Shown: positions 3,021 to 60,673 of the stretch, piece after piece
How positions within the stretch are numbered: the stretch's first letter is position 1
How the letters are laid out: every line of letters begins with the position of its first letter
IMG/VR virus record: IMGVR_UViG_2061766007_001638
DNA from: an uncultured virus (IMG/VR IMGVR_UViG_2061766007_001638)
Taxonomy: Duplodnaviria > Heunggongvirae > Uroviricota > Caudoviricetes
Strand: one strand, 5' to 3'
DNA length: 64,000 bases
Made by a program: the position numbers and the translations under genes
The notes under the pieces: model-generated
Databases searched by the model: none
Told to the model about the DNA's origin: nothing
What the model saw: only the letters and a program-made list of their open reading frames with translations

Positions 3021-5408
3021 CACGCCCGCCGAATTGACTTGACAAAGAGAAAACCATTTGGTATAATGGAGCCATGAAAGGAAAACAACCCATGAAAAAG
3101 ATTACGATGTCCGAGTTCAACGCATATCCCGAGTTCATGCACAATGGCGTGTTGTCCATTGAAATCGGGGGAAAGATTTATTCAAAGCAGGGCGTTTACA
3201 ACCTTCTCGTGGCCATGGGGATGATTGTGGATTAAACTTGACAGAAGGAAAACGGTTTGGTATAATATAGGCACAACGAAACAAAAGGAAAAAGAAAATG
3301 AAAGAGACGTTCAAGTACAAGTTTTTTGGGGATTGCGGCTTCATTGACGATTTCTACAATGATTCCATTCCAGTTGAGCGCATTACTAAACTGGAAATCA
3401 AAAACGAAAACATGGCGATTTCCGTCAATTTGACCGATTCCGAGGTGAAGGAAACCGTTTCAAAACTTCTCACGAACTTTTCGCCCGATGAGGTAATTGA
3501 CATTCTTGCCGACATTATCCACGAAAAGAAACAGAATGGCTAATGGCGAGGGGCGAAAGCCCCGCGCCGACTTTCGGAAATTATAGCAACGCTGGCGATT
3601 TCCGTCAAGTTATTTCCAATGGTAATTGATTTGACAAACGACTTGTCTTTTGGTATAATTGAGGCATGAAAGGAAAACAAGCCATGCGCGAAAACTGGAT
3701 TCTTGAGACGATAGAGAACATGAAAAAGACTGCGGAACGGGACAACTCCATGCCGTCCGAGTTCAAGGCGGGATATATCCAGGCATTGAAGAACATCCTT
3801 TTTGTGGCGACCGAGAAGTAATTGGCTTGACAAGTCTCCCGAAGTATGGTATAATAGAGGCATAAGGAGAAACCCATGAGAATCAAACACTTCGCTGGTT
3901 ATGGTTGCGTGAACGCAAAGAAGGTAAAGAGAACGGATGATACACTTGTCGTCCATGTGTGGGGAAACCATGAACGCGGAATATATCGGAATGACTATTA
4001 CGATATTTTCAACTGGCTCGTCAAGCGGTTTGACAAAACGCGTAATGACTATTTTCNNNNNNNNNNNNNNNNNNNNNNNNNNGGAGTATTGGGAAGACGG
4101 CAAGCCATGCGGAACCGACCACTGTATCTACACCATAACTTTCAGAAACTAACAGGAAATAAGCAAAAAAGCGAAAAACAGGCTGGCCCCCTATGGGGGC
4201 CACGCCTTTTTGTTTTCGNNNNNNNNNNNNNNNNNNNNNNNNNNNAAGTTATTTCCTTCTGTCTTTTAATTTGACCGAAGCCTTGTCTTTTGGCATGAAA
4301 GGAAACAAACCCATGATTACGATGTCAGATGGAAACAATACGATTCAAGTCACGCCCGCGCAGGCGTATCAGGCGATTCTTGACGGATACCTCCCCGTGT
4401 GAATTGTCTTGACAAGAGCGAAACGGTTTGGTATAATAGAGGCATAAAGGAAAACGAGAAAGGAAAAACCCATGAACGAACCCACCACCTACACCTATCT
4501 CCTCAAAATCAAAATTGACGGGGGAGCCGCATTTCAGAAAACCCGCGTAATGAGCATCCGCGCCCGTGGGTACGAGTATGCGGTGGATGAGGCATTTGAA
4601 AAACTGTACAACGAGTTTTCGGGAGTTGTCGCCTTCTTCAATGTGGTAGACTGGAAGCGCATCTAATCGGGAATTGAANNNNNNNNNNCACAGGCACAGG
4701 CAGGAATGATTCAACCGCGCATCGGTCGCTACGGCATCTGCGGATATGATGTAATTGTCAAGGGTCTTGAATGTATCCTCTTTCGCACGAAGAGGTTGGC
4801 GCGTAGGTGGATGGAAGCGCATGGATATGAAATCGTAGGGGAATGAAAGGAGAAACAGGAAATGGAAAAAATCATCATCAGTTTAATTTTCGCGTGGGCA
4901 ATCCTCTTTATCGTGGACAAGAAGTGATTGACTTGACAGGCCGACAGAAGTCTGGTATAATAGAGGCATGAAAGGAAATCAACCCATGATAAATCCCGCG
5001 ATGAAAACTCGGCTTCAAGAAGTAAGCGAACTTTCCGTACTTAGCAAAAGCATAATTGCGGATTTACTGGTCGAACTGGAAACGCTTTCCAAAATGTCGG
5101 CCCCCGCCAGAATAGACTTTGAAAGCAAGTTTTACTTTGCCCTTGAAAAGTACGTCCAGTACAGCATAGAGGCATTTGACTTGACAAACAGGAAGTAATC
5201 TGGTATAATAGAGGCATAAAGGAAAACGAGAAAGGAAAAACCCATGAACGNNNNNNNNNNCTGGTATAATTGGAGGGGGGCACAGGTTTTCTGTTTCGGA
5301 AAATTATATCGAATCGGGGGAGTTTTGTCAAGTCAATTCATTGTCGGCATTTGATTTGACAAGATGATTGCCTTTTGGTATAATTGAGGCATGAAAGGAA
5401 ATCAAACA

Positions 5409-7743: not shown

Positions 7744-8822
7744 CAAACCAATAAACTTGACAAGGTGAAATCAATTTGGTATAATACAAGCACAAGCAAC
7801 AAAACAAACAACACAAACAAAAACACAAGGAGTAAAACAATGTCTTACATCTCTCTCGGCTACACTCTCGCCCGCAAGATTCTCGCAAACCTCGACAAGG
7901 CCAGCGCGAACGGCAACGGAAACGTTGTCTACTCCCCGTGGGGCGTGTTCCGTATGTACAAGTCTAACAAGCGGGGACGTTTCTACTCAATCAGCAAGAG
8001 CACGGTGTTCCACAATGGCGGCTCTTNNNNNNNNNNNNNNNNNNNNNNNNNNNNTGCCTGTTGCTTGAGTGAAGAGGCCCCGCCCGAAAGGGTGGGGCCT
8101 CGCTTTTTGGCATTTTCCGAAAATTATACCAAAACGCGGCGCGCCTGTCAAGTTATTTCCAGCGGTAATTGATTTGACAGCCCCCGTATTTTTTGGTATA
8201 ATTGAGGCATGAAAGGAAACGAACCCATGAACAGAATAAGCCTAGTGAAAAAGCAGGGATTTTGGTATGTCTACGGAGACGGAGACCCAAAAGTTTTTCC
8301 TACCGAGAAATCTGCCCTTGAACACTGTTATGTCATGGGGTGGGTATGTGTGGACAAAACCGATTGCGGTGATTTCGCCATGTACTCTATGATTCAGGAT
8401 TGACTTGACAGAGGCCCAGGTTTTTGGTATAATGGAGGCATAAGAGGAAAACCCATGAAAACCTACATCTTCACCTATTCCAAAAAGACACGCGCTGGAT
8501 ACTGGCGGGNNNNNNNNNNNNNNNNNNNNNNNNNNNNNNNNNNNNNNNNNNNNNNNNNNTTAGGGACATTTTCATTTCTGCCGTTGAAGTGGTGAAAAGC
8601 GAAGTTTGCGGGTACAGGTTCGTAGAGGTTCATGGGGGAGAATACTATCACCATGACTACAAGAAAAACGCCATAGTTCGCAAAAAGCAGAATTGGGAAC
8701 CCGTTTATTACGATTATAAACTAAAGAAGTGGTGGGTTTGCGGGAAGAGGAACTGCTTGGAGAAATAACTTGACAACTGTCCGAGAGAATGATATAATAG
8801 AGGCATGAAAGGAACGGAACCC

Positions 8823-22793: not shown

Positions 22794-22862
22794 GTGTGGA
22801 TAGTTTAATGGTAGAACTTTCGGCTACTCCCGAATGTGCGGGTTCGACCCCCGCTCCACACT
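22794..22862 (+). ncRNA. tRNA-like RNA with 6-nt anticodon loop (CTACTC), no CCA
   Basis: GTGTGGA/TCCACAC acceptor, D-arm GTTTAATGGTAGAAC, TTCGG/CCGAA stem, T-arm GCGGG-TTCGACC-CCCGC. Confidence 0.7.
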
Positions 22863-39134: not shown

Positions 39135-39570
39135 ATGAAGCTCCAGTGCTGGGTCTGGAGGGTAAAATGAAAACCCGTAGCTCTTTGACAATTGAACTGA
39201 TTTGGAAACTGCGGATGCACATTGGTCCGCGAGTCGTCACGGCGACTATAAACAGGTATCAGGCCGTGAGCGGCGACCTGGCAAAGGGGTCTGTGGAAAA
39301 AGGGCCTCAGACCAGGTGCGCGTTACGCTTTGGGCGGACGGGAAGATGGGAGACAAAACCATACCTGAAACACTGCCGAAATGGAATAACTGAAGAAAGA
39401 ACAGACGTGGCAAGGTCCGCGTGGCCAGCAGTGGTTCCAGTCGGTGCCCGTACCGTCACCGAAAATGCTTGTGGGTGAGGGTTCCTTTAGACGTAAAGTT
39501 GAACCTGGCATGGGGATATACGCCTCGGGTCCTCTAGAAGGATATGGCTCCCCGAAATTAACCCTCGCGC
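39135..39570 (+). ncRNA. Candidate large structured ncRNA heading the tRNA operon
   Basis: Sigma70 promoter 39099-39127, no SD-led ORF, many hairpins, long-range pairing GTGAGGGTT/AACCCTCGC. Confidence 0.5.
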
Positions 39571-40279: not shown

Positions 40280-40353
40280 TGGGGCTTCGCATAAAAGCAG
40301 TGCACTGGCCTTTGAAGCCAAGGGAGATGGAGCGTTACCATCAGCCCCAACCA
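40280..40353 (+). tRNA. tRNA-Gln(UUG), atypical T-loop AGCGTTA
   Basis: TGGC-CTTTGAA-GCCA, TGGGGCT/AGCCCCA, ACCA. Confidence 0.85.
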
Positions 40354-40934: not shown

Positions 40935-41062
40935 TCGGGCGTGGCGAAATGGTAGCCGCAGGGGACTGTCGGTCTATAGTTAAATGGTAGAATGCAATCA
41001 TGAGAATGGCTGCGATTCTGGTTCAATTCCAGATAGACCGTCCATAATCCCCCGCCGCAAGG
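40935..41062 (+). tRNA. Interrupted tRNA-Asn(GUU) with nested tRNA-like insert at 40970-41044; 3' end lost at N gap
   Basis: GGGGA-CTGT[75-nt insert]TAA-TCCCC restores CTGTTAA. Confidence 0.7.
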
Positions 41063-41104
41063 NNNNNNNNNNNGTGGATTCGAATTTGGTAAATATTAAC
41101 AGTT

Positions 41105-41914
41105 ATGAAACACTTTATTATCTATCAAATTCGAAACAAATTAAACGGAATGATATATGTTGGAAAACATATGACCGAGGACCTAGATGACGGATATATG
41201 GGTTCTGGATTAAGAATACGAAGAGCCATTGAGAAATATGGGATTGATAACTTCGAAAAAACAGTCCTACATGAATGTGCGTCTGAGCAGGAAATGGACG
41301 ATATGGAGGCTGTAATAGTAAACGAGGATTTCATTTCCAGAGATGATGTCTACAATATTATTCCTGGTGGTCTTGGTGGATTTTAGCATGTGAATGAATC
41401 TGGATTGAACATATATCCGAATTGGATTTCGATAGACAAGAGAAATAAAGACCTATTTGAGAAAACTGGAAAATATCCATCTTCTGGATGGCAATCTAGA
41501 ATGAGAGACAAAAACCCAGAAAAATATGAAAAATTTAGAAAAAATCTCTCTAATTCAATAAAACAGCACATCAAGGAGTATGGCTCGGTTTGGTCTGGGA
41601 GAAAACATTCAGATGAAACGAAACGAAAAATGCGAGATATGCATAAAAAGAACCATTATCAGGCTGGAAACAGAAATTCCCAATACGGAACCGTATGCAT
41701 GTTCAACGAAACCATTCGAAAAACGAGACGTGTGAAACCAGACGAAATCTAGAAGTATTTGGAAAGTGGATGGAAGAAGGGAGCGGTATACAACTGGGAT
41801 AGATTCTTTTCAAGACAAAAAGAATCCAAAAATTTTAAAAGGAATGACGACGTGAAGAATCCCATTGGGGTCGCAACTGTACTGGACCGATGGCCGTCGC
41901 AAGACGGTGCATAA
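41105..41914 (+). CDS. GIY-YIG homing endonuclease with NUMOD3-like motif; two in-frame TAG
   Basis: IYQIRN..NG.IYVGKH...DGYMGSG, YN...GG.GG, KHSDETKRKM; frame stays open across TAG 41384 and 41750 to TAA 41912. Confidence 0.85.
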
Positions 41915-42279: not shown

Positions 42280-43209
42280 ATGAAAAATTATCAATGTGTA
42301 TGCGGGAAATCTTTCTCTAATGGCCGTTCTTTACAGAGTCATGAAAGATGTTGCAAAGAATACAAGAAATCAAAAGAATTAAAACAGCTTGAACTTTTAC
42401 GGGAAAGAGAATCAAAACGTCTTCCAAATGGGATGTTTGTCTGTGAAAATCCAAGATGCAAGAAAGAACATGATGGAAGTTACGGGTCTGGTAGATTTTG
42501 TTCGGATTCGTGTAGGAGGTCTTTTAACGCTCAGCAAAACAATTTTGAGCATATTCGTATCAAAAGAATCGAATATATAAATAAAAATCCTTCTGCAAGA
42601 AGTCCGCATGGAACCTGGAAATGCAAAAATTGTGATTTAATTTTTAATACAAGACAGGAACTTTTTGCTCATAACAAAGAGATTCATCCACACAAAGGAA
42701 CTTCTTGGAACAAAGGACTGACAAAGTATACAGACAAACGTGTTGCCGAAAACGCAAAGAATGTTTCAAAATCAATGAAAGAACGAAGTAAACTTGGATT
42801 ATTAAACAAATGGTTTAGTAAAGATGGATGGACCGATGAAATGAGAAAAAGATTCTCTGATATGAAAAAGAAATTATATATGGAACATCCAGAAAAACAT
42901 CCAAATAGAAAATTGGCAAATAACAAGCACAAAATGACATATCCAGAAAAAGTTGCCTTTGAATGGTTAACAGAACATAACATAAAATTTGTTAATCAAT
43001 ATAAATTAGTCTTAGAGGGAAATGCACGTTATGTTGATTTTCTTGTTAACAATAACATAATAATAGAAATAGACGGTGAGTTTTGGCATCCAATTGGAAA
43101 CAAAAATGATTTTTGCAAGGATGAACTAGCTAAAAAACATGGATATGTAACATACAGAATAAGGGCATCAGAACGAATAATTGATAAATTACAAGAAATT
43201 TTTGGATAA
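42280..43209 (+). CDS. Zinc-finger + DUF559/Vsr-like endonuclease (free-standing homing-type)
   Basis: CxC/CxxC fingers, HDGSYGSGRFCS, WNKGLTK, TYPEK...YVDF...IEIDGEFWH; AT-rich relative to flanks. Confidence 0.8.
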   Translation: MKNYQCVCGKSFSNGRSLQSHERCCKEYKKSKELKQLELLRERESKRLPNGMFVCENPRCKKEHDGSYGSGRFCSDSCRRSFNAQQNNFEHIRIKRIEYINKNPSARSPHGTWKCKNCDLIFNTRQELFAHNKEIHPHKGTSWNKGLTKYTDKRVAENAKNVSKSMKERSKLGLLNKWFSKDGWTDEMRKRFSDMKKKLYMEHPEKHPNRKLANNKHKMTYPEKVAFEWLTEHNIKFVNQYKLVLEGNARYVDFLVNNNIIIEIDGEFWHPIGNKNDFCKDELAKKHGYVTYRIRASERIIDKLQEIFG

Positions 43210-43602: not shown

Positions 43603-43679
43603 CCCCTCTTGTCGCAACTGGCAGTCGAGGCAGATTTAGATTCTGTTTGTTGGGGGTTCGAATCCCTCAGAGGGGACCA
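43603..43679 (+). tRNA. tRNA-Leu(UAG), short variable loop
   Basis: GCAGA-TTTAGAT-TCTGT, ACCA. Confidence 0.88.
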
Positions 43680-44418
43680 TTTTCCTTTCGAGATACCTTT
43701 TCTCGAAAAGGGCCACCACTTCGGGCTCTGGTCTGTAAGTATGCAATTTACCCATTGCGTCTGTTTGGTCGAAGCAGCATATCCGCCTTGGTGCACTACC
43801 TCTCGTCTTGTTCGAAATTATGGTCGAAGGAACTATCCTGACTCCGTTCGAATGGACTATGCAGGAATAAAGGCAGTCGTCGTTGTATGTATTGACTATC
43901 TCGTCTGTCAGGAACCACTCGTATCCACGGAACATCCATCTTGCGACTAACGACCCTGGAGCGAAACACCTGATTCTCTAACCCAGGACAAGCCCCTTGG
44001 AAATATGGCTCTTCGCGGTTCCAGATGTTATGGCGCATTTCCTGCCATATGCGTCATATTCGATTATCCTGCACTTCAGGAGGTCCGAGGGAATAAGCTG
44101 GTCGTCGTCTATGAAAAGGATTACGTCGTCGTCATCCAAAAGAGGGAGAATCGGGAATATCTTCTTCATGCTCTTCGTGTTCGGTCCTGGAACCCAGTTG
44201 ATTCTGAAATTCTTGTATTTTCTGGTCATTTCCAGAAGTTCCTTCGGAAGCTCGTCTTCCTTCTTTGGAAATTCCTCTTCTGAGAGATTCAGGAACATGA
44301 CGTCTGGTTTCTCGAATCCCTTAAAAACCGCGTTTACCACCGTGGCGCAGTTGTCTATCCTTTTTGTCCACGACGTCATCGTCACGACCTTTTTTCCGAT
44401 TTTTCTCATTATGGACAT
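43636..44418 (-). CDS. GT-A fold glycosyltransferase-like protein; one in-frame TAG
   Basis: VVTMTSW..RI...KPD...LNLS..EF, KSMKK.FP, IDDD, later NDD; ORFs 43978..44418 and 43636..43935 share a frame across TAG 43978-43980. Confidence 0.75.
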
Positions 44419-45273: not shown

Positions 45274-46543
45274 ACTTTCCAGGTTATCAGAATCACAGGA
45301 TGTGCCTCGACTATTTCCTGGAATAAGATTTGACGTTTCCTCATGGAAACATTTTTTGAAAAATGTGACATTTTGACACNNNNNNNNNNNNNNNNNNNNN
45401 NNNNNNNNNNNNNNNNNNNNNGAATTTATTCAATTTTTATTTCGTATAATATTCATGAGAGCGGGACTAAGTAGTAAAAAACAAACAAAAAAGAAAAAAC
45501 GCGGAGCTAAAATCCACAAAAAGCCAAATNNNNNNNNNNNNNNNNNNNNNNNNNNNNNNNNNNNNNNNNNNNNNNNNNNNNNNNNNNNNNNNNNNNNNNN
45601 NNNNNNNNNNNNNNNNNNNNNNNNNNNNNNNATTTCCCGCTCAAAAAAGCACTTTTAAAGTAAAAAACAAGTCCCCTCCAAGAATTCGACCAGTTTTCGT
45701 CTTTCCCGTGGAATTGACTTGACGGAGGTTCCTCTGTTTGGTATAATATATGGCACAAAGGAAAAACAAAAAGGAGAAGAGAAAATGGACTGGTATGGAA
45801 ACAACGGCTTCAGGTGCGTGAATCTCCACGAGAACGAATACGGGGAAGAGGTCTGCAGGTACACGGACTGTCCGTGCGGCTGTTTCTCAAGGAGGGAATG
45901 CTCCTTCTCGGACTGCTTCGACGGGATTCCTGGGGAGTTTGACTGAAAGACGGACTTGGAAGAAAGAAAGAGAGAAATTAAAATGGAAGAAAACGGAAAA
46001 GGGATGGAAAAGCGGATTGAGTTCGCGGGGAAATGCGAGGAGCTCGCGGAGTTGGGGAGGGAAGTCCCGAGCGGGGGATGGGACGTCCCGATGAACTTCA
46101 TCGTGGACTCTCTCAGGAACTGGGCGAAGTGCTATCGGATGCCGCCCAGGAACATTGGATGAGGGAGAGGGAAGCGCATGGAAAGGGATTTGGAGAAAAA
46201 GAGATTCGAAATGGCGTCGATGCTTGGGTGGGCGCTGTTCGTGAAGTTCCTCAAGTTCCTGGCGGCGGCTGGGGCGGTGTTCCTCCTGANNNNNNNNNNN
46301 NNNNNNNNNNNNNNGCTGGAAATTCCGTCCAGGGGGTCAGGATTTCCCCCTCGGACTTCAGGTGAAGGAGGAGGGGAACGTGGATATGGAACTAGTCCTT
46401 TCCCGCGAAAGGATGGAGGCTTATGGGGCGTCCTGGTGACTGAATATGGTTTTCTTCTGGATTTGACTTGACTGGTCTTCGGACCTTTGGTATAATATTG
46501 GCACATTTTGGTTCTTTGGCAATTGAGGTTTTTCTTAAAAGGA

Positions 46544-46689
46544 GTTCCCGTAGCTCAAAGGAAGAGCAGGAGCCTTCGTCGGGGTCGTTCAAGCAGGACG
46601 TCCAGCACTATCTGGAAAATCCGAGTTCGAGTCTCGGACCTGGCACCGTAAGCTTCTGGTTGGAGGTTCGAGTCCTCTCGGGAATGCCA
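46544..46689 (+). tRNA. Interrupted tRNA-Arg (UCU, or UCG with a 1-nt shifted junction) with nested tRNA-like insert at 46578-46648
   Basis: GTTCCCG/CGGGAAT-GCCA, GGAGC-CTTC[71 nt]TAA-GCTTC, complete outer D and T arms. Confidence 0.85.
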
Positions 46690-46698
46690 ATTTGCGAT

Positions 46699-46773
46699 TG
46701 GTCCATGGTGAAACAGACATCACGGAATCCTCCTAAGATTCAATTTCGGGTGCGATTCCCGATGGACCAACCA
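46699..46773 (+). tRNA. tRNA-Arg(CCU)
   Basis: GAATC-CTCCTAA-GATTC, TGGTCCA/TGGACCA, ACCA. Confidence 0.88.
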
Positions 46774-46874
46774 TAGTCCGAACTCATGGTTCCACCCAAC
46801 AGATTCGGACTTTTATCTTTGGTAAATAATTCAGGACGTTAGTGGAATAACGTCTTGAAAATAAAGGTAAAAAT

Positions 46875-47747
46875 ATGAAATGCGAAGAGTGTGGAAATGA
46901 ACACGACGGCTCGTATGGAAGNNNNNNNNNNNNNNNNNNNNNNNNNNNNNNNNNNNAAGAGATAAAAATTGGAAATCCCCTTTCTCTAATCCAAAAAATA
47001 AGAGAAACAAAAAAGCACCGTTTGGGACATGGAAATGTGAAGTTTGTGATTTTATAGCAGAAACAAAAAACGAAAAATATGTTCATATACGAAAATATCA
47101 TCCAGAAACATTGATAAGACATGCGTGGAACAAAGGTTTAACAAAATACACGGATAAAAGAGTAAATCAAGGTTGTGAGTCAAAAAGAAAAAAATATGAA
47201 AATGGAGNNNNNNNNNNNNNNNNNNNNNCAGGAAACAAAGGAAAAATTATCGAGAGCACAAAGAAGTCTTTCTGTCAGAAGAAAATGCAAAAAGACTGTT
47301 CCATATATAAGAAAAGATGGAAGTGTAGTTCTCGTAGATTCTTCATACGAGATAAAACTTGCAAAAATTCTTGATGAAAATAATATAGAATGGATAAGAC
47401 CAGACCCGATTCCGTGGCTGGATGTAAAAGGAAAGACACATTTCTATTTTCCAGATTTTTATTTGACAGACTATGACATTTATCTCGACCCAAAGAACGA
47501 TTACTGTTTTGTTCAACAATCTGAAAAGATATCGTATTTTACAAAAAATTACAAAAATATCTTCTTTTTAAGAAAAGAACAATTAACAAAAGAACACGTA
47601 AATTCATTAATTGGACGGTATATCAGCTGGTTAGATAGTCGCTCTGATAAAGCGAAGGTCGTGGGTTCGAGTCCCACCCGTCCAACCAAAGGAACAAAGG
47701 AACAATGGAAGACAATCGGATGGAGAAGATACGCGAGGTATTGGTGA
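46875..47747 (+). CDS. Zinc-finger + PD-(D/E)xK endonuclease; N-terminus paralogous to 42280; frame broken by N gaps
   Basis: CEECG.EHDGSYG, GTWKC..C, WNKGLTKYTDKRV, then DSSYE..LA..LD..NI.W...YFPDFYL...IYLDPK. Confidence 0.75.
47612..47688 (+). tRNA. tRNA-Ile(GAU)
   Basis: TCGCT-CTGATAA-AGCGA, ACCA. Confidence 0.92.
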
Positions 47748-48106
47748 AGGCCAGGAAGGCCATATGCCACCATGCCGAGCATGTATGCCAAAGCTTGGCG
47801 TGGGAGAACAGCACAATAAATGCGAACTGCGGCGACGTGTTGTGCGCCCACAGGGATTTGTGCGAGGCGAAGACGGCAATCGACGAAGCCCTTTCCTTGC
47901 CGCGCCGCAACTGCGATGTCGGGACTGCGGACGAGCAGGCGGAGAGATTCGAGCGGTTCTGTGCGGAACACCACGAAGAGTGGAAAAATGGAAAGCCACT
48001 TATGGCGTGGACTTGTGATTGCCCATGCTACCAGACAAGTAAAAATTCGTGCAATTATTTTGTGTGGGCACAGATGCCATACTCGGAGGAAGGAGATGTG
48101 AAATGA
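47705..48106 (+). CDS. Cys-rich hypothetical protein
   Basis: SD-led ORF with RRNCDVGTADEQAERF..FC...C.C....WAQMPY. Confidence 0.7.
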   Translation: MEDNRMEKIREVLVKARKAICHHAEHVCQSLAWENSTINANCGDVLCAHRDLCEAKTAIDEALSLPRRNCDVGTADEQAERFERFCAEHHEEWKNGKPLMAWTCDCPCYQTSKNSCNYFVWAQMPYSEEGDVK

Positions 48107-48350
48107 GGACGGCGGATTTCATAAAGGAGCACTGCATTGGGACTTTCTGCCCAGACTTCGACTTCGAGCGTGGATGCGGGGCGTTCGACGGCGAGGAGTG
48201 CGACGAGGCGTTCTACCACCCAGAGTGGAGAGGAATGAGGATGGCCGACAGGGTCACGCGCCTCTGCGAAAGGCGGTCTCGAGAGAAGGGGACTTCCGTA
48301 TAATATGTTTGTTGATTTGATTGTTCTTTGAAAATTGAAAAATAATTTTT

Positions 48351-48425
48351 GGCCGCTTCGTATAGTGGTTATTATCGCAGACTCTTAATCTNNNNNNNNN
48401 NNNNNNNNNNNNNNNNNNNNNNNNN
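48351..48425 (+). tRNA. tRNA-Lys(CUU), 3' half in gap
   Basis: GCAGA-CTCTTAA-TCT. Confidence 0.75.
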
Positions 48426-48509
48426 NNNNNNNNNNNNNNNNNNNNNNNNNNNACGGCTGGGGAGGTTCGAGTCCTCCGCTGGGATTCCATGTATAATATT
48501 AAAAGCAAG

Positions 48510-48648
48510 GCAAGATTGGCAGAGAAGTTATGCGCCACCCTTCCCGTGGAATAGTTCAAGCAGAACGCCACAAAGGAAATCTTGGTTCAAGTCCAAGTTC
48601 CGCGACCAAAGGTGGTTTACGCCGATGCGAGTTCGGCATCTTGCTCCA
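48510..48648 (+). tRNA. Interrupted tRNA-Gly(UCC) with nested tRNA-like insert at 48545-48608
   Basis: GCAAGAT/ATCTTGC-TCCA, CCACC-CTTCC[64 nt ending ACCA]AA-GGTGG. Confidence 0.88.
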
Positions 48649-48765
48649 TTTCTACCCTGAACTCATGGTTGCCGCCAACAGATTCAGGGTGATTATTTCG
48701 TATAATTGTAAATAGATGTGTGAACGTGTTACGGCAATAACACACTAATAACGGGAAAAATAATT

Positions 48766-49369
48766 ATGAAGAAGCATTACTTGGTTTACAAAACCACTTG
48801 CCTATTGAATGGCAAGATTTACATTGGTCAACATTAGACTTATGACCTCAACGATAGCTACGTTGGAAGCGGTAGGGATTTGAAAGAGGATATTCGTAAA
48901 TTCGGGTCTGAAAATTNNNNNNNNNNNNNNNNNNNNNNNNNNNNNNNNNNNNNNNNNNNNNNNNNNNNNNNNNNNNNNNNNNNNNNNNNNNNNNNNNNNN
49001 NNNNNNNNNNNNNNNNNNNNNNNNNNACTGGGAGGATTAAAAGTTGCTATGCGATGTAAGACTGACCCAGAATACAATAGAAGGTTGTTAGACAAAAAAC
49101 GAATGGTTATGCGAATGGAGTGGAAAACCAACCCTGAAAGATTTAGAAATTGTTGTTGTTTTAATCCTTCGTTTAGAAAGACTTTTTTGGGAAAACACCA
49201 TACCGAAGAAACGAAACAAAAGATGCGAGAAAAAGCTCATCTTCGCACAGGAAAAAAGAATAGTTCTTTTGGNNNNNNNNNNNNNNNNNNNCAAGAAGGT
49301 GAAGAAAGAAGAAGCAGAAACCTTCTTGAACCAAGGCTGGAAACTCGGAAGAAAAATGAGTTTCAATAA
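48766..49369 (+). CDS. GIY-YIG homing endonuclease with NUMOD3-like motif; in-frame TAG; gapped
   Basis: YLVYKTT...NGKIYIGQH*TYDLND.YVGSG (TAG 48835), KHHTEETKQKM. Confidence 0.8.
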
Positions 49370-49380
49370 ATGATTTTAAT

Positions 49381-49455
49381 GCGAACGTGGTACATCAGCA
49401 GTACACCAATCTGCCAGATTGGNNNNNNNNNNNNNNNNNNNNNNNNNNNNNNNNN
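49381..49455 (+). tRNA. tRNA-Gly(GCC), 3' half in gap
   Basis: CCAAT-CTGCCAG-ATTGG. Confidence 0.75.
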
Positions 49456-50394: not shown

Positions 50395-50602
50395 AGTCTC
50401 TTTTATCCTAGTTTCCGACCGAGAGAGTAAACGGGGAGGCAAGACGGATTGCCTGAAGCCGAAAACGTGCCAGCTGGAGGGAGAAAACACGCGTCTCCGT
50501 AAAACCTGGCCAGGAAGTTGCCAGTCACCACAAGTAGGCTCCGAGTCCATGTCGTCCAAGGTTCATGACCCTGCGAAACAGGAACTCCGTATGATATTTT
50601 CT

Positions 50603-50729
50603 GGGCATAGAAGGTTCCTATTATTTCGACGACCAATCTCTGGGTTGCGGGTTCGAGTCCCGTCGCTGACGCACAACGCGTCCGTGTAGCTCAACTGGCA
50701 GAGCAAGAGACAGAATATACCTTCCGCCC
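50603..50729 (+). ncRNA. YrlA-like Y RNA (permuted tRNA domain on a long bulged terminal stem)
   Basis: GGGC..GAAGGT/ACCTTC.GCCC stem; TCTCT, T-arm GCGGG-TTCGAGT-CCCGT, closed acceptor GACGC-ACAAC-GCGTC, D-arm GCTC-AACTGGCA-GAGC, AGAGA. Confidence 0.8.
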
Positions 50730-50734
50730 TTTAT

Positions 50735-50819
50735 TGCCAGGTGCCAGATAAGATAATGGGGCGGGCTGTAAACCCGCTGTCTTCGGACTTAGGTGGAGCG
50801 TTACCACCCCTGGCAACCA
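50735..50819 (+). tRNA. tRNA-Tyr(GUA), atypical T-loop AGCGTTA
   Basis: GCGGG-CTGTAAA-CCCGC, variable arm, ACCA. Confidence 0.88.
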
Positions 50820-51108
50820 TTCTCCATCAAATGACCGTCGAGCTCGAGAAAGACGGTCTAGGATGGAAGAAAACTAAAGTAGGCGCTGGTCTCTGGTGGT
50901 CCAGCCAGCGTTGACAACGGGAAGAAACGGACAAGGCGAAATCCTGTTCGGACAGTTCGGATTGGGTCTTCGAGCGGAGTGACCACCCGTGGCGAAGACA
51001 TATCCGTGGAGTCGATGGCGAGAGATTGNNNNNNNNNNCAGCGTATGCGCACGAATGCTGGACAATCGCAAGTGCTGGTTTAAATCCGTTGACAGCGCGT
51101 TTCCTTTT

Positions 51109-51185
51109 GGTCGAGTAGCTCAGCTGGTTGGAGCGTCTCGTTGACATCGAGAAGGTCGGCAGTTCGAATCTGCCCCCGACCACCA
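51109..51185 (+). tRNA. tRNA-Val(GAC)
   Basis: TCTCG-TTGACAT-CGAGA, ACCA. Confidence 0.92.
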
Positions 51186-51720
51186 CTTCCAAGTTTTACG
51201 GACACGCGAGATGGGTTCGATTCCCACTCCGAAGGCTGTTCGAATCCGCCTCGGGCCTGGTGGCATACGTCTGGAACAGGCGGGNNNNNNNNNNNNNNNN
51301 NNNNNNNNNNNNNNNNNNNNNNNNNNNNNNNNNNNNNNNNNNNNNNNNNNNNGAGGGGACCGACGGTTCGAGTCCGTCCAAACCTACCAAGATTAACTTG
51401 ACAAATGATTGATGTATGGTATAATATACCACAGTCAGGAGAAAACAAAATGAGAGATTTCTGGTTAGGAGTGTTCGCTGGTGCGTGCTTCACTTTGATT
51501 ATTGTTCTTGCGATAATGTCGATAGTCAATACAGAGGATGGATACAGGGACAAGATGACGATAGAGTACATCTGTCCAGACAAGGAATACGAGAGGAAGA
51601 TGTTCCTTGACATGGTGAACGGAAGCGGAATCGAGACAAATTTCATATACAAGGATTACCATTACGGAAAACATTCCATAAAGTACATCCTGAAAAATCC
51701 AAAGTGACTTAAAACCAAAT

Positions 51721-51838
51721 GGCTTGATACTCAGGTAACTGGTCCTGGCCCGTGGTGAAACGGGTTCCCTGACATTGATGGGCTTGTCGACCGCCCGTCG
51801 GGGAGACAGCGGAGTCGATATCCGCAAGACAGCCACCA
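51721..51838 (+). ncRNA. tRNA-like RNA, 6-nt loop, very long variable arm, ACCA
   Basis: CCCGT-GGTGAA-ACGGG, TCCCTGAC/GTCGGGGA arm, GCGGA-GTCGATA-TCCGC. Confidence 0.55.
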
Positions 51839-51985
51839 ATTNNNNNNNNNNNNNNNTGATAATGTCTTCAGTTTATTGCAATAGACAAAAAGACATTGGA
51901 AGATGGCCAACAGAACACCTTCTATGAATCCATGGTTAGTAGAGGGAGACCCGTGGTTCGATTCCACGATGACCCGACCATTTAC

Positions 51986-52060
51986 GGGCCGATAATTCAA
52001 CGGTAGAATACTTCACTGGCAGTGAAGATATGCAGGTNNNNNNNNNNNNNNNNNNNNNNN
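51986..52060 (+). tRNA. tRNA-Ala(GGC), 3' end in gap
   Basis: CTTCA-CTGGCAG-TGAAG. Confidence 0.75.
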
Positions 52061-52227
52061 NNNNNNNNNNNNNNNNNNNTAATCCCAGAAGGGCGTAGCA
52101 AGGCTTGAATTCACCTTCCGCTTGAAACATGGGACGTGGCTTGCAGAATCTAGATATGCAAGTTATACGAGCGCGGCAGCATGGAGCTGCTAGTTCCGTG
52201 AGAATCGGATGTCGTCGCCAATTTAGA

Positions 52228-52301
52228 GGGCCGCTAGTTCAATAGTAGAACACCTCGTTCGCAACGAGGAGACTTCGGAGCGTTACCGAACGTGTCCACC
52301 A
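52228..52301 (+). tRNA. tRNA-Ala(CGC), imperfect acceptor, atypical T-loop
   Basis: CCTCG-TTCGCAA-CGAGG, G3:U70, ACCA. Confidence 0.75.
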
Positions 52302-52347
52302 TTTCCTGGCTTTTAGATAGTTGTCTAATGATATTCATGCACAAAAT

Positions 52348-53936: not shown

Positions 53937-54209
53937 TCTGGAATCATTCAGACATGAAACTTGAAAGCATAGACCCAGAGCTCTTCTCGCTTGAACTCTA
54001 CAACCCGAACGGACTCCACGAGCTGGACGTGGCCCTTTGCATAGCGGCATCAATCGGATACTGCGACGCGTCCCGCCTACTCGTCCGCCCGAAAGAGGGG
54101 GAAGTTGCGCTGATGATTGAATGGGAGGACGGGTCGAAGTACTGGTGCCACGCGAACATGGACATTCTCGATTCAATCAGGGAATGGCTTGCGAGAAGGA
54201 GGTCGTGAC

Positions 54210-55052
54210 ATGGGATACACTTTCAGGAGAACCAGCGGAAACTCGTGGGACACGCATTCCCCGAGCTACGGGAAGAATACGGAAAGGAAGGTCCTTTTCG
54301 ACGGAATAACCTGGGAGATAACCCTCAGGGAGGTCATGTTCTCCATCCTTATTCTCGGGATGTTCGCGTTTTTGGGATTCCTCGTCCATTCTGCGATAGA
54401 CAAGAAAGTTGACGATTCCACCCTCAAGTACAGACAGGCCGTCTCGATACAGGACGAAGGCGAGTTCCGACACGCGATGGACACCGACGTGGGGAACGCT
54501 TTCGTAAGGGGTAAGGTCGAGGCGGTAACTCCAGTCAAGACGAAACTGGTGAAGGGCGAATATCTCAGGATTCACGTTGACCACCAGAAGTACAGGATGC
54601 ACACGAGGGTGGTGACGTACACGACTTACGACTCGAAGGGCCGTCCCCACGTCCACCACAGGACGGTCACGTATTGGTCGTGGGACACCGTGAATTCGTT
54701 CACAACGAACTCCCAGGAGGTCGTGTTCTGCGGCTCGAAGTTCAAGTACGACAAGTTCGAATATTCCTGTGCGAATACGGACGAGACGATAGTCGGAGGG
54801 GGAACGTTTAATAACGAAAGAGACGTCGTGTATACCACGAAGGACGGGTTCACTGGAACGATTTTCGCGGACCTTCGGAACGGAAGCGTGACTGGAAGAC
54901 CGACGATGGTCGGAAGAGGGATAGAGAAGTACAGGGAAAGCCTAGAGAAGTGCACCTGGCCGTACGTCCTTTTCTGGATACTGTGGATTGTGCTGACTGT
55001 TGTCGCGATAGTACTGTTCTACATAATAGACAACAGATGGCTGGAAGGATGA
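54210..55052 (+). CDS. Two-TM membrane protein downstream of LemA
   Basis: EITLRE..FSI TM, Y..HTRVVTY....G....TVTYWSWD, C-terminal TM FY.IDNRWLE. Confidence 0.75.
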   Translation: MGYTFRRTSGNSWDTHSPSYGKNTERKVLFDGITWEITLREVMFSILILGMFAFLGFLVHSAIDKKVDDSTLKYRQAVSIQDEGEFRHAMDTDVGNAFVRGKVEAVTPVKTKLVKGEYLRIHVDHQKYRMHTRVVTYTTYDSKGRPHVHHRTVTYWSWDTVNSFTTNSQEVVFCGSKFKYDKFEYSCANTDETIVGGGTFNNERDVVYTTKDGFTGTIFADLRNGSVTGRPTMVGRGIEKYRESLEKCTWPYVLFWILWIVLTVVAIVLFYIIDNRWLEG

Positions 55053-60224: not shown

Positions 60225-60608
60225 ATGAAAGTTGAGAAATTCAAGGAAAAGTACGAAGCACTTCAGAAAGAAGGAAACGACATCTACGTCCAGATTAAGC
60301 CCCTTCTCAAGCGGCTTAAGTCCTTGACTAGGAAATGCAACAATCTTGGAAACAAGGCCGATGGAGACCCAAACTTGTACGAGAGAATAGTCGTAACAAG
60401 GAAAGACGACAGGGGGTACGAAGGACCAAACAAGATTTCAATTACGAAGGGTTGGGACGAAAGCGTCCTTTTCAGGCTTTGGGACATGGACGTTCTTGTA
60501 ACCGAGCCGAACGTGATAGATTGCATAGACAATGTTCTGTACAATATTACGCATACAAAGTTTGAGAAGAAAACTCAAAGAAGAAAAAATAACGAAATGG
60601 CTGGATAG
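60225..60608 (+). CDS. Hypothetical protein
   Basis: AAGGAG SD-led ORF; its end overlaps a tRNA. Confidence 0.7.
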   Translation: MKVEKFKEKYEALQKEGNDIYVQIKPLLKRLKSLTRKCNNLGNKADGDPNLYERIVVTRKDDRGYEGPNKISITKGWDESVLFRLWDMDVLVTEPNVIDCIDNVLYNITHTKFEKKTQRRKNNEMAG

Positions 60609-60673
60609 GCTAAGTAGTAGACCACGGCCCTCATAAGGCCAGGATGGAGATGCAAACGCTCCTCCAGCCACCA
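60599..60673 (+). tRNA. tRNA with CAU anticodon (Met or Ile2)
   Basis: GGCC-CTCATAA-GGCC, GGCTGGA/TCCAGCC, ACCA. Confidence 0.8.

Follow-up and report, generated by a model that had tools for sequence, protein, structure and literature searches.

The DNA analysed here, referred to as the window, is a 64,000-nucleotide (nt) stretch of the uncultured virus record IMG/VR IMGVR_UViG_2061766007_001638 (Caudoviricetes), and our subject is a tRNA-Arg gene at 46544–46689 whose anticodon loop is interrupted by a 71-nt insert with the shape of a second, smaller tRNA (Table 1). The sequence of 46544–46689 is as given in a first-pass annotation of the window, and contains no N. The window is phage-like, with small genes on the + strand, each behind a repeated TTGACT...TGGTATAATAT promoter, and with an array of approximately 35 tRNA genes between 39.5 and 53.2 kb. 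Many short stretches of the window are masked, and gene counts refer to the unmasked part; genuine genes are on the + strand under table 11, and Pfam matches were obtained for 2 of the 95 open reading frames (ORFs) scanned. The phage has approximately 50% G+C and sigma-70-type promoters, and because of this promoter type the host is judged to be bacterial. The runs that carry the stretch are bovine-gut metagenomes by their listing.

Table 1. Features at and around the two nested tRNA genes of the window.
Feature	Coordinates	Strand	Remarks
Sigma-70-type promoter	46468–46496	+	TTGACT, 17 nt, TATAAT, with TG ahead of the -10 element; 48 nt upstream of the tRNA
tRNA-Arg, 5' exon	46544–46577	+	acceptor strand, D arm, 5' strand of anticodon stem, loop bases CTTC
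tRNA-shaped insert, 71 nt	46578–46648	+	acceptor GTCGGGG/ACCTGGC, D arm, stem with 6-nt loop, T arm, A73, CCG
tRNA-Arg, 3' exon	46649–46689	+	loop bases TAA, 3' strand of anticodon stem, variable loop, T arm, acceptor strand, G73, CCA
tRNA-Arg(CCU)	46699–46773	+	RF00005, 50.9 bits; 9 nt downstream of the nested Arg gene
Hairpin	46775–46811	+	conserved 21-nt loop CTCATGGTT....C.AACAGA; 2 nt past the CCA of tRNA-Arg(CCU)
Nuclease gene, partly masked	46875–47600 (end approximate)	+	paralogue of ORF 42280–43209 (53% identity over 51 aa, E 2e-16)
tRNA-Gly(UCC) (second nested gene), 5' exon	48510–48544	+	
tRNA-shaped insert, 64 nt	48545–48608	+	7-bp acceptor, shared D arm, 2-bp anticodon-arm remnant, T arm, A73, CCA
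tRNA-Gly(UCC), 3' exon	48609–48648	+	U73, CCA
Hairpin, second copy	48654–48690	+	5 nt past the CCA of the nested Gly gene; lies ahead of a GIY-YIG-type nuclease gene
GIY-YIG/NUMOD3-type nuclease gene	~48767–49369	+	NUMOD3 match

The first-pass annotation had described the locus as a tRNA-Arg nested around a 71-nt tRNA mimic, and the Rfam model, ARAGORN and the fold of the inner element agree on this. RF00005 (cut-off 29 bits) matches 46544–46686 over model positions 1–71 at 45.2 bits with 75 nt inserted in the anticodon loop, and in the Rfam search of the whole window the outer gene has an E-value of 2e-6. The nested gene is not called by ARAGORN under default settings; with introns allowed, the program reports tRNA-Arg(tct) i(35,71) at 46544–46689, and when 46578–46648 is taken out it draws a canonical tRNA-Arg(tct) of 75 nt that has seven nt in the anticodon loop and ends in CCA. 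The gene's own sigma70 promoter, also named in that annotation, agrees with the consensus at 11 of 12 positions, and the 607-nt region contains two such sites (mean 0.5 in shuffles). Transcription from this promoter probably yields one common transcript of the nested gene and tRNA-Arg(CCU). The exons are closest to the window's own tRNA-Arg(ACG) (60/75 identical); orthologues of both outer tRNAs were sought in three other virus records (G001, G004 and G005), where none is close (43–54/75 identical). The two nested genes are the only Arg-UCU and Gly tRNA genes seen by ARAGORN in the unmasked window. In the codon use of 37 window ORFs, GGA is the commonest Gly codon (36%) and CGG accounts for 12% of Arg codons.

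Most parts of a tRNA are recognizable in the Arg insert. Its acceptor stem forms six of seven pairs, and the D stem is 4 bp long with a 5-nt loop. Where the anticodon arm would stand there is a 5-bp stem whose loop has only the 6 nt CACTAT; the T stem, also of 5 bp, has the loop TTCGAGT and is followed by A73 and CCG. When searched alone, 46578–46645 aligns with the whole RF00005 model at 26.9 bits, just below the cut-off. ARAGORN calls no tRNA in the Arg insert or in the Gly insert, and neither inner element combines a score above the cut-off with a 7-nt anticodon loop, the two properties taken to mark a decoding tRNA. Because ARAGORN does not call a tRNA there, the Arg insert is a tRNA mimic that is unable to decode.

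The second nested gene, tRNA-Gly(UCC), has an insert of the same kind. The Gly insert alone scores 39.9 bits against RF00005, with its anticodon arm reduced to a 2-bp/5-nt remnant, and without 48545–48608 ARAGORN draws the outer gene as a canonical 75-nt cloverleaf with a 7-nt loop and a CCA end. The near-identity of the two D arms, pointed out in the first-pass annotation, extends to 12 of 13 bases, and the next base and the AAAT linker are also common to both inserts. A pattern made of this D arm and the T loop occurs in the window only in these two inserts (0 of 100 shuffles contained any match). When the inserts are aligned, 31 of 32 stem cells are paired (96.9%) and six of 16 pairs carry changes in both partners; these values were reached in 8 of 500 shuffles, and sliding the stem partners by one column lowers the pairing to 44–50%. 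Pairing is thus held through two-sided changes and lost on a register slide, and therefore the fold, beyond the sequence, appears to have been kept since the two copies diverged, a modest conclusion from two sequences. The common origin that the first-pass annotation suggested for the inserts is supported by the shared D arm and by stems kept through compensatory changes. The alignment and covariance model that it recommended gave paired stems in both inserts; the model (R1) has no further match in the window and none in the five virus records searched.

The limits of the inserts can be read from contigs of four other DNA runs (X3–X6, from four studies), which were aligned to 46315–48700. The Arg insert is carried by contigs of all four runs: an X3 contig is identical to the window over 46520–46789, insert included; an X5 contig spans 46488–46830 with five differences and four gap positions; an X6 contig spans 46571–46823 with seven differences and one extra T in the outer variable loop; and X4 contributes two pieces. 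Because insert-bearing contigs occur in other runs, the nested Arg gene is not an assembly artefact. Insert-less alleles are present as well. In one X6 contig 46577 is followed directly by 46649, exactly 71 nt are missing and the loop reads CTTC/TAA (Arg-UCU; the slash marks the joint); in one X5 contig 48544 is followed directly by 48609, with exactly 64 nt missing and the loop CTTCC/AA (Gly-UCC). At both joints no letters are shared on either side, and the placement is unambiguous. In a further X5 contig, 46569–46658 is replaced by 19 letters that provide another anticodon stem with the same loop, CTTCTAA. Since the insert-less contigs skip exactly these stretches, the insert would consist of the mimic from +1 to CCG (Arg) or CCA (Gly), with the reservations that attach to contigs of low depth. 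The insertion sites lie between anticodon positions 35 and 36 (Arg) and between positions 36 and 37 (Gly), and the insert appears to have been precisely gained or lost at the DNA level among related phage populations. For annotation, these alleles fix the anticodons as Arg-UCU here and Gly-UCC at the second locus, both of which default tRNA finders missed or mislabelled; a one-base shift at the Gly locus gives the UCA anticodon that ARAGORN reported in intron mode, and the DNA alleles speak for UCC.

The unconstrained minimum-energy fold of the Gly precursor is exactly the nested double cloverleaf (-43.1 kcal/mol), and the junctions flank a 7-bp helix with four and seven unpaired bases. Three known classes of element were considered and rejected. 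The two 3-nt bulges 4 bp apart that define a bulge-helix-bulge intron are absent from the minimum-energy and nested folds. A group I intron is excluded by size (64–71 nt is far below that of the core) and by the Rfam search of 46400–46850 at E-values up to 1, in which no match to this class was found. A small ribozyme was rejected on the same Rfam search, which returned the two tRNAs and two chance matches far below threshold.

Comparable inserts have been described in Lak megaphages by Devoto et al. (2019; Nat Microbiol, PMC6784885); there the tRNA introns are called "enigmatic", the authors were aware of no previous description of introns in phage tRNAs, one of the introns "may encode a tRNA", and genomes with and without the intron fix its limits. 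Table S6 of the article lists AT-rich inserts of 79–141 nt after position 37, in each of which a hairpin and a linker precede a CCA-less mini-tRNA. The Lak and window inserts are alike in being short anticodon-loop inserts in phage tRNA genes (Gly-UCC included) that contain or end with a mini-tRNA, in varying in presence between related genomes with exact limits, and in matching no intron class of Rfam. They differ in that the window inserts lack the 5' hairpin and linker, start at +1 of the mimic and end in CCA or CCG, and lie inside the anticodon (35/36 and 36/37) rather than after position 37; moreover, the window phage is not Lak-like, with ~50% G+C and sigma-70-type promoters, and there is no sequence similarity (blastn against GenBank phages returned nothing). 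Judged by sequence and predicted structure, the window inserts appear to share the Lak principle and to represent a minimal variant of it in an unrelated phage. A later paper on the mechanism of tRNA-shaped phage introns was not found in the full-text literature, a search that left most subscription journals outside.

We propose, with somewhat less than even confidence, that the insert is removed by RNase P at its 5' end and by a cut after its CCA-type end at the 3' side, with sealing by a ligase of the Rnl1 type. Standard tRNA-end enzymes are proposed because both ends of the insert coincide with mature tRNA ends. RNase P requires stacked acceptor and T arms together with a purine-C-C tail. 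Both inserts have a 7-bp acceptor stem (6/7 paired in Arg) and a 5-bp T stem followed by A-C-C, and would thus fit the RNase P substrate pattern of a ~12-bp acceptor/T stack, a purine and two C; the change from CCA to CCG leaves both C intact. According to this model, the tRNA-Arg(UCU) gene is split between anticodon positions 35 and 36 by nothing other than an anticodon-defective mini-tRNA, from +1 to CCG, and would be transcribed together with tRNA-Arg(CCU) from the promoter of the nested gene into a precursor that folds as a cloverleaf inside a cloverleaf. RNase P would read the inner acceptor/T-arm stack and the ACC tail and cut 5' of the inner G+1, leaving the 5' exon with a 3'-OH, and an end-measuring endonuclease would cut after inner position 76, leaving the 3' exon with a 5'-phosphate. 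Candidates for the latter are a tRNase Z of the after-A76 type, or a phage enzyme; the enzyme of Thermotoga maritima cleaves precursors that bear CCA exactly behind A76 (PMC1540738). The exon halves would be held together by the outer tRNA body, and the nick in the anticodon loop would be closed by an RNA ligase that uses ATP and is of the T4 Rnl1 type. Cuts by RNase P and tRNase Z produce 3'-OH and 5'-phosphate ends, which Rnl1-type ligases join without healing. The products would be a 75-nt tRNA-Arg(UCU) and a free 71-nt mini-tRNA. The tRNA-Gly(UCC) gene (48510–48648) would follow the identical route, and the nuclease genes adjoining both loci may help the insert to spread.

A number of observations weigh against this route. 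Most bacterial tRNase Z enzymes do not cut after position 76, and the Arg mimic ends in CCG, not CCA. No RNA run is listed among the runs with 46315–46921, and we infer the splicing and both cleavages. A Pfam scan of 126 window ORFs (95 + 31) found no RNA ligase, RtcB, RNase or nucleotidyltransferase/CCA-adding family. For the Arg precursor, the nested fold (-45.8 kcal/mol) lies 6.4 kcal/mol above an alternative that pairs the two similar T arms (-52.2 kcal/mol). Each insert-less allele is a single contig of low depth (2.1 and 4.4), and the shorter side of the Arg joint comprises 25 letters at 80% likeness; such joints often come from other organisms. In favour of the route, a ligase of the T4 Rnl1 family (PF09511, 59.2 bits) is encoded in G004, a complete 414-kb phage record in which RtcB was sought and not found, and which shares with the window several non-tRNA array segments (75–96% identity) and the hairpin cassette described below. 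However, G004 is loosely tied to the window, with neither of the two window proteins tested found there and no insert of this family, and its ligase offers weak backing for the ligation step. The Lak inserts, in addition, carry an extra 5' hairpin that is not removable by RNase P alone (Table S6, PMC6784885); because of this hairpin, a single mechanism common to the Lak and window inserts may have to be a different one.

Among the alternatives, it is possible, at a level we would call tentative, that no splicing occurs and that the insert is a selfish or domesticated tRNA-derived DNA element: the mini-tRNA would be the product (e.g., a decoy against tRNA-targeting host defences) and the outer halves a landing site or scaffold, or the outer gene would simply be inactivated. 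The variable presence of the insert among related populations, the nuclease genes that adjoin both loci, and the occurrence of other tRNA-like genes without a usable anticodon in the window (22794–22862 and 40970–41044) are all consistent with such an element. On the other hand, both outer genes become perfect cloverleaves with 7-nt loops after removal of the insert, their exons are intact in contigs from several studies, no other Arg-UCU or Gly gene was seen in the unmasked array, and GGA is the commonest Gly codon. Rather doubtful, in our estimate, is that the insert is a true intron served by dedicated machinery, which could be a phage-encoded endonuclease with the mini-tRNA (in Lak phages the 5' hairpin as well) as its docking site, followed by a ligase. 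The 5' splice site of the Lak inserts, behind which lie the hairpin and linker, is no RNase P site; between the two window inserts the D arm and the AAAT linker keep their sequence and the remaining stems covary, the behaviour expected of a protein recognition element; and the CCG end of the Arg mimic also speaks for a dedicated enzyme. No candidate for such an enzyme was found among the 126 window ORFs by Pfam, however, and standard enzymes explain without further assumptions why both ends are mature tRNA ends.

Much less probable is the idea, put forward in the first-pass annotation, that the excision may be off by one nt at both ends and that a single gene thereby gives both tRNA-Arg(UCU) and tRNA-Arg(UCG). 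The underlying arithmetic is correct (CTTCTAA at 35/36, CTTCGAA after the 1-nt shift), both products would be canonical tRNAs according to ARAGORN, and a second isoacceptor would suit an array in which no CGG-reading Arg tRNA was seen although CGG makes up 12% of Arg codons. Yet the insert-less X6 allele reads CTTC/TAA without ambiguity, the Gly insert has the same +1-to-CCA register, the uninterrupted Arg gene of X5 has the loop CTTCTAA, and a shifted cut would have to be made within the first acceptor-stem pair of the mimic; two isoacceptors from this gene are not borne out. That the nested appearance is due to chance or misassembly is scarcely credible, given the outer gene's E-value over the whole window, the homologous insert at a second locus and the insert-bearing contigs of four other runs.

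To our knowledge, protein-dependent tRNA splicing is regarded as an archaeal and eukaryal trait, and the tRNA introns of bacteria and phages are known as self-splicing group I introns. Archaeal and eukaryal introns, which are processed by the splicing endonuclease and RtcB or Trl1, resemble the window inserts in being short, in lying in the anticodon loop and in having exons held by the tRNA body; they differ in that the window gene lacks a bulge-helix-bulge and belongs to a phage whose host is bacterial by its promoter, and in that the RNase P/tRNase Z route would yield 3'-OH and 5'-phosphate ends, not cyclic phosphate and 5'-OH. Group I introns of bacterial and phage tRNAs share the anticodon-loop site, the presence/absence polymorphism and the association with homing nucleases, whereas the window inserts, at 64–71 nt, are far too small for the core and have no Rfam match. 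The mascRNA of MALAT1, the t-elements of plant mitochondria and mitochondrial tRNA punctuation are tRNA-shaped processing signals cut by RNase P and tRNase Z. There, as in our model, a tRNA-shaped module in a longer transcript sets two exact cuts at its own ends, but the flanks are not rejoined, whereas here they are the halves of another tRNA and would need ligation. T4 Rnl1/Pnkp repairs tRNA nicked in its anticodon loop by a host anticodon nuclease; sealing of a 3'-OH/5'-phosphate nick in the anticodon loop is thus the natural reaction of Rnl1, and G004 encodes a member of the family. In T4 the nick is damage, whereas in our proposal it would be a programmed maturation step, and no ligase is seen in the window.

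Taken further, the model would amount to a third, protein-based mode of tRNA splicing in bacteria and their phages, one that operates without a splicing endonuclease, a suggestion we regard as less likely than not. The intron would be a miniature tRNA excised by RNase P and a tRNase Z-type cut, with an Rnl1-type ligase resealing the exons; the released mini-tRNA, stable, CCA-ended and anticodon-less, might act as a decoy; and the +1-to-CCA limits would record an origin as mature mini-tRNAs that were ligated into anticodon loops cut by host nucleases, converted back to DNA, and propagated with the aid of the adjacent nucleases. The Arg and Gly loci are the simplest form of tRNA-shaped intron seen so far, with inserts that consist of the mini-tRNA only and ends that are fixed by insert-less alleles, and these exact limits make the splicing route directly testable as a three-enzyme question.

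Both nested loci are followed by a hairpin and a nuclease gene. The 8-bp stems of the two hairpin copies covary, the window contains no other copy, and in Rfam no family reaches the gathering threshold. A search of IMG/VR with the loop pattern gave 31 loci, four of which (L052, L062, L070 and L071) have complementary flanks (6–8 of 8 positions). All four lie directly behind a tRNA or tRNA-like 3' end (judged by eye for L052, L062 and L070; an ARAGORN tRNA only at L071), and at L070 and L071 the hairpin is followed by a second hairpin, a ribosome-binding site and an ORF whose start is like that at 46875. The hairpin possibly acts as a terminator, or it marks the 5' boundary of a nuclease cassette that is mobile; both are suggestions. 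The C-terminal part of the nuclease gene at 46875 (47229–47597) matches PHROG 15137, "endonuclease" (E 9e-12), and the arrangement, with free-standing nucleases next to an interrupted target gene, is reminiscent of collaborative homing. In-frame TAG codons are present in the GIY-YIG/NUMOD3 ORFs, two in 41105–41914 and at least one in ~48767–49369; with TAG read as Q, 41105–41914 gives an unbroken 269-aa protein, and the other + strand genes read well under table 11. The distantly linked virus record G001 has two suppressor tRNAs with CUA anticodons. Either TAG is recoded in the GIY-YIG/NUMOD3 genes or these genes are broken. Window-wide reading of TAG as Q was rejected, as the long minus-strand frames without a family match are mirror images of the repeated promoter.

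Searches for relatives of the inserts with the D-arm-plus-T-loop pattern returned one and then two loci in viral contigs and 23 loci in metagenome contigs, all of them chance matches in coding sequence, and 18 loci in genome contigs, where none of the six inspected is tRNA-like and the other 12 are a recurring Burkholderiaceae gene, judged by title and identical match length. Against GenBank phages, blastn of the Arg locus and of 50400–52330 and tblastn of the DUF932 protein returned nothing. Similarity searches gave no related loci for protein 54117–55049 and three distant loci for protein 43639–44418, with no tRNA within 10 kb on either side, and two window proteins sought in five virus records (G001 and G004–G007) were found in none of them. 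In a scan of 336 kb (both strands counted) for a mini-tRNA inside an anticodon loop, 12 hits were obtained, compared with 0–4 in 20 shuffles: the two known loci, a candidate at 40970–41044, and nine that are chance-like. The candidate is a 75-nt tRNA-like element (RF00005, 41.6 bits) with an 8-nt anticodon loop and a TCCA end; its flanks, GGGGA-ctgt and taa-TCCCC, could form an anticodon stem, and a D-arm-like hairpin lies upstream. An outer T arm and acceptor were not found, the 3' continuation (41063–41073) being masked, and 40938–41062 is a possible third nested case.

Inserts of another kind are present in G001 (locus L028), a record with 36 tRNA genes, four of them (Lys-CUU, Glu-UUC, His-GUG and Sup-CUA) with inserts of 24–45 nt beside the anticodon that are not tRNA-shaped (2890–2997, 4731–4855, 4860–4981 and 7873–7974). 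The His and Glu inserts have the motif ACAGCAATT in common, and these short inserts are different in kind from those of the window. On the reverse strand of locus L080 in G004 (~4200–4470), a tRNA 3' end (T arm, acceptor strand and CCA) stands upstream of the conserved hairpin and is preceded by ~250 nt without an ARAGORN call; a tRNA gene split by a large intron, perhaps of group I, is one possible reading.

Several further structured elements occur in the window. Two tRNA-like elements are free-standing outside the array: 22794–22862 (RF00005, 51 bits) has a 6-nt "anticodon" loop and no encoded CCA, and in 60599–60673 the anticodon loop is of the CAT type, the T arm is aberrant and CCA is encoded. 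The tRNA genes at 40280–40350, 50735–50819 and 52229–52298 have the T loop AGCGTTA instead of TTCRANT; they include Gln-UUG (by loop reading) and Tyr-GUA, and default ARAGORN misses two of the three. Four non-tRNA segments of the array (51718–51841, 50437–50592, 52080–52224 and 49373–49422) have counterparts of 74–96% identity in the tRNA arrays of G004 and G005 and no match in Rfam, and may be structured RNAs of no described family; an ARAGORN "tRNA-Thr i(33,165)" at 51739–51980 overlaps the first of these and spans a masked stretch. A weak similarity (31.6 bits, cut-off 69) to the tRNA-like module of YrlA, which is bacterial Y RNA-like, is seen at 50639–50711, where the T arm comes before acceptor-like and D-arm-like segments in the manner of a permuted tRNA. 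A Pistol ribozyme match (37.9 bits, gathering threshold 34.5) is located at 39232–39295, ~280 nt upstream of the first tRNA of the array.

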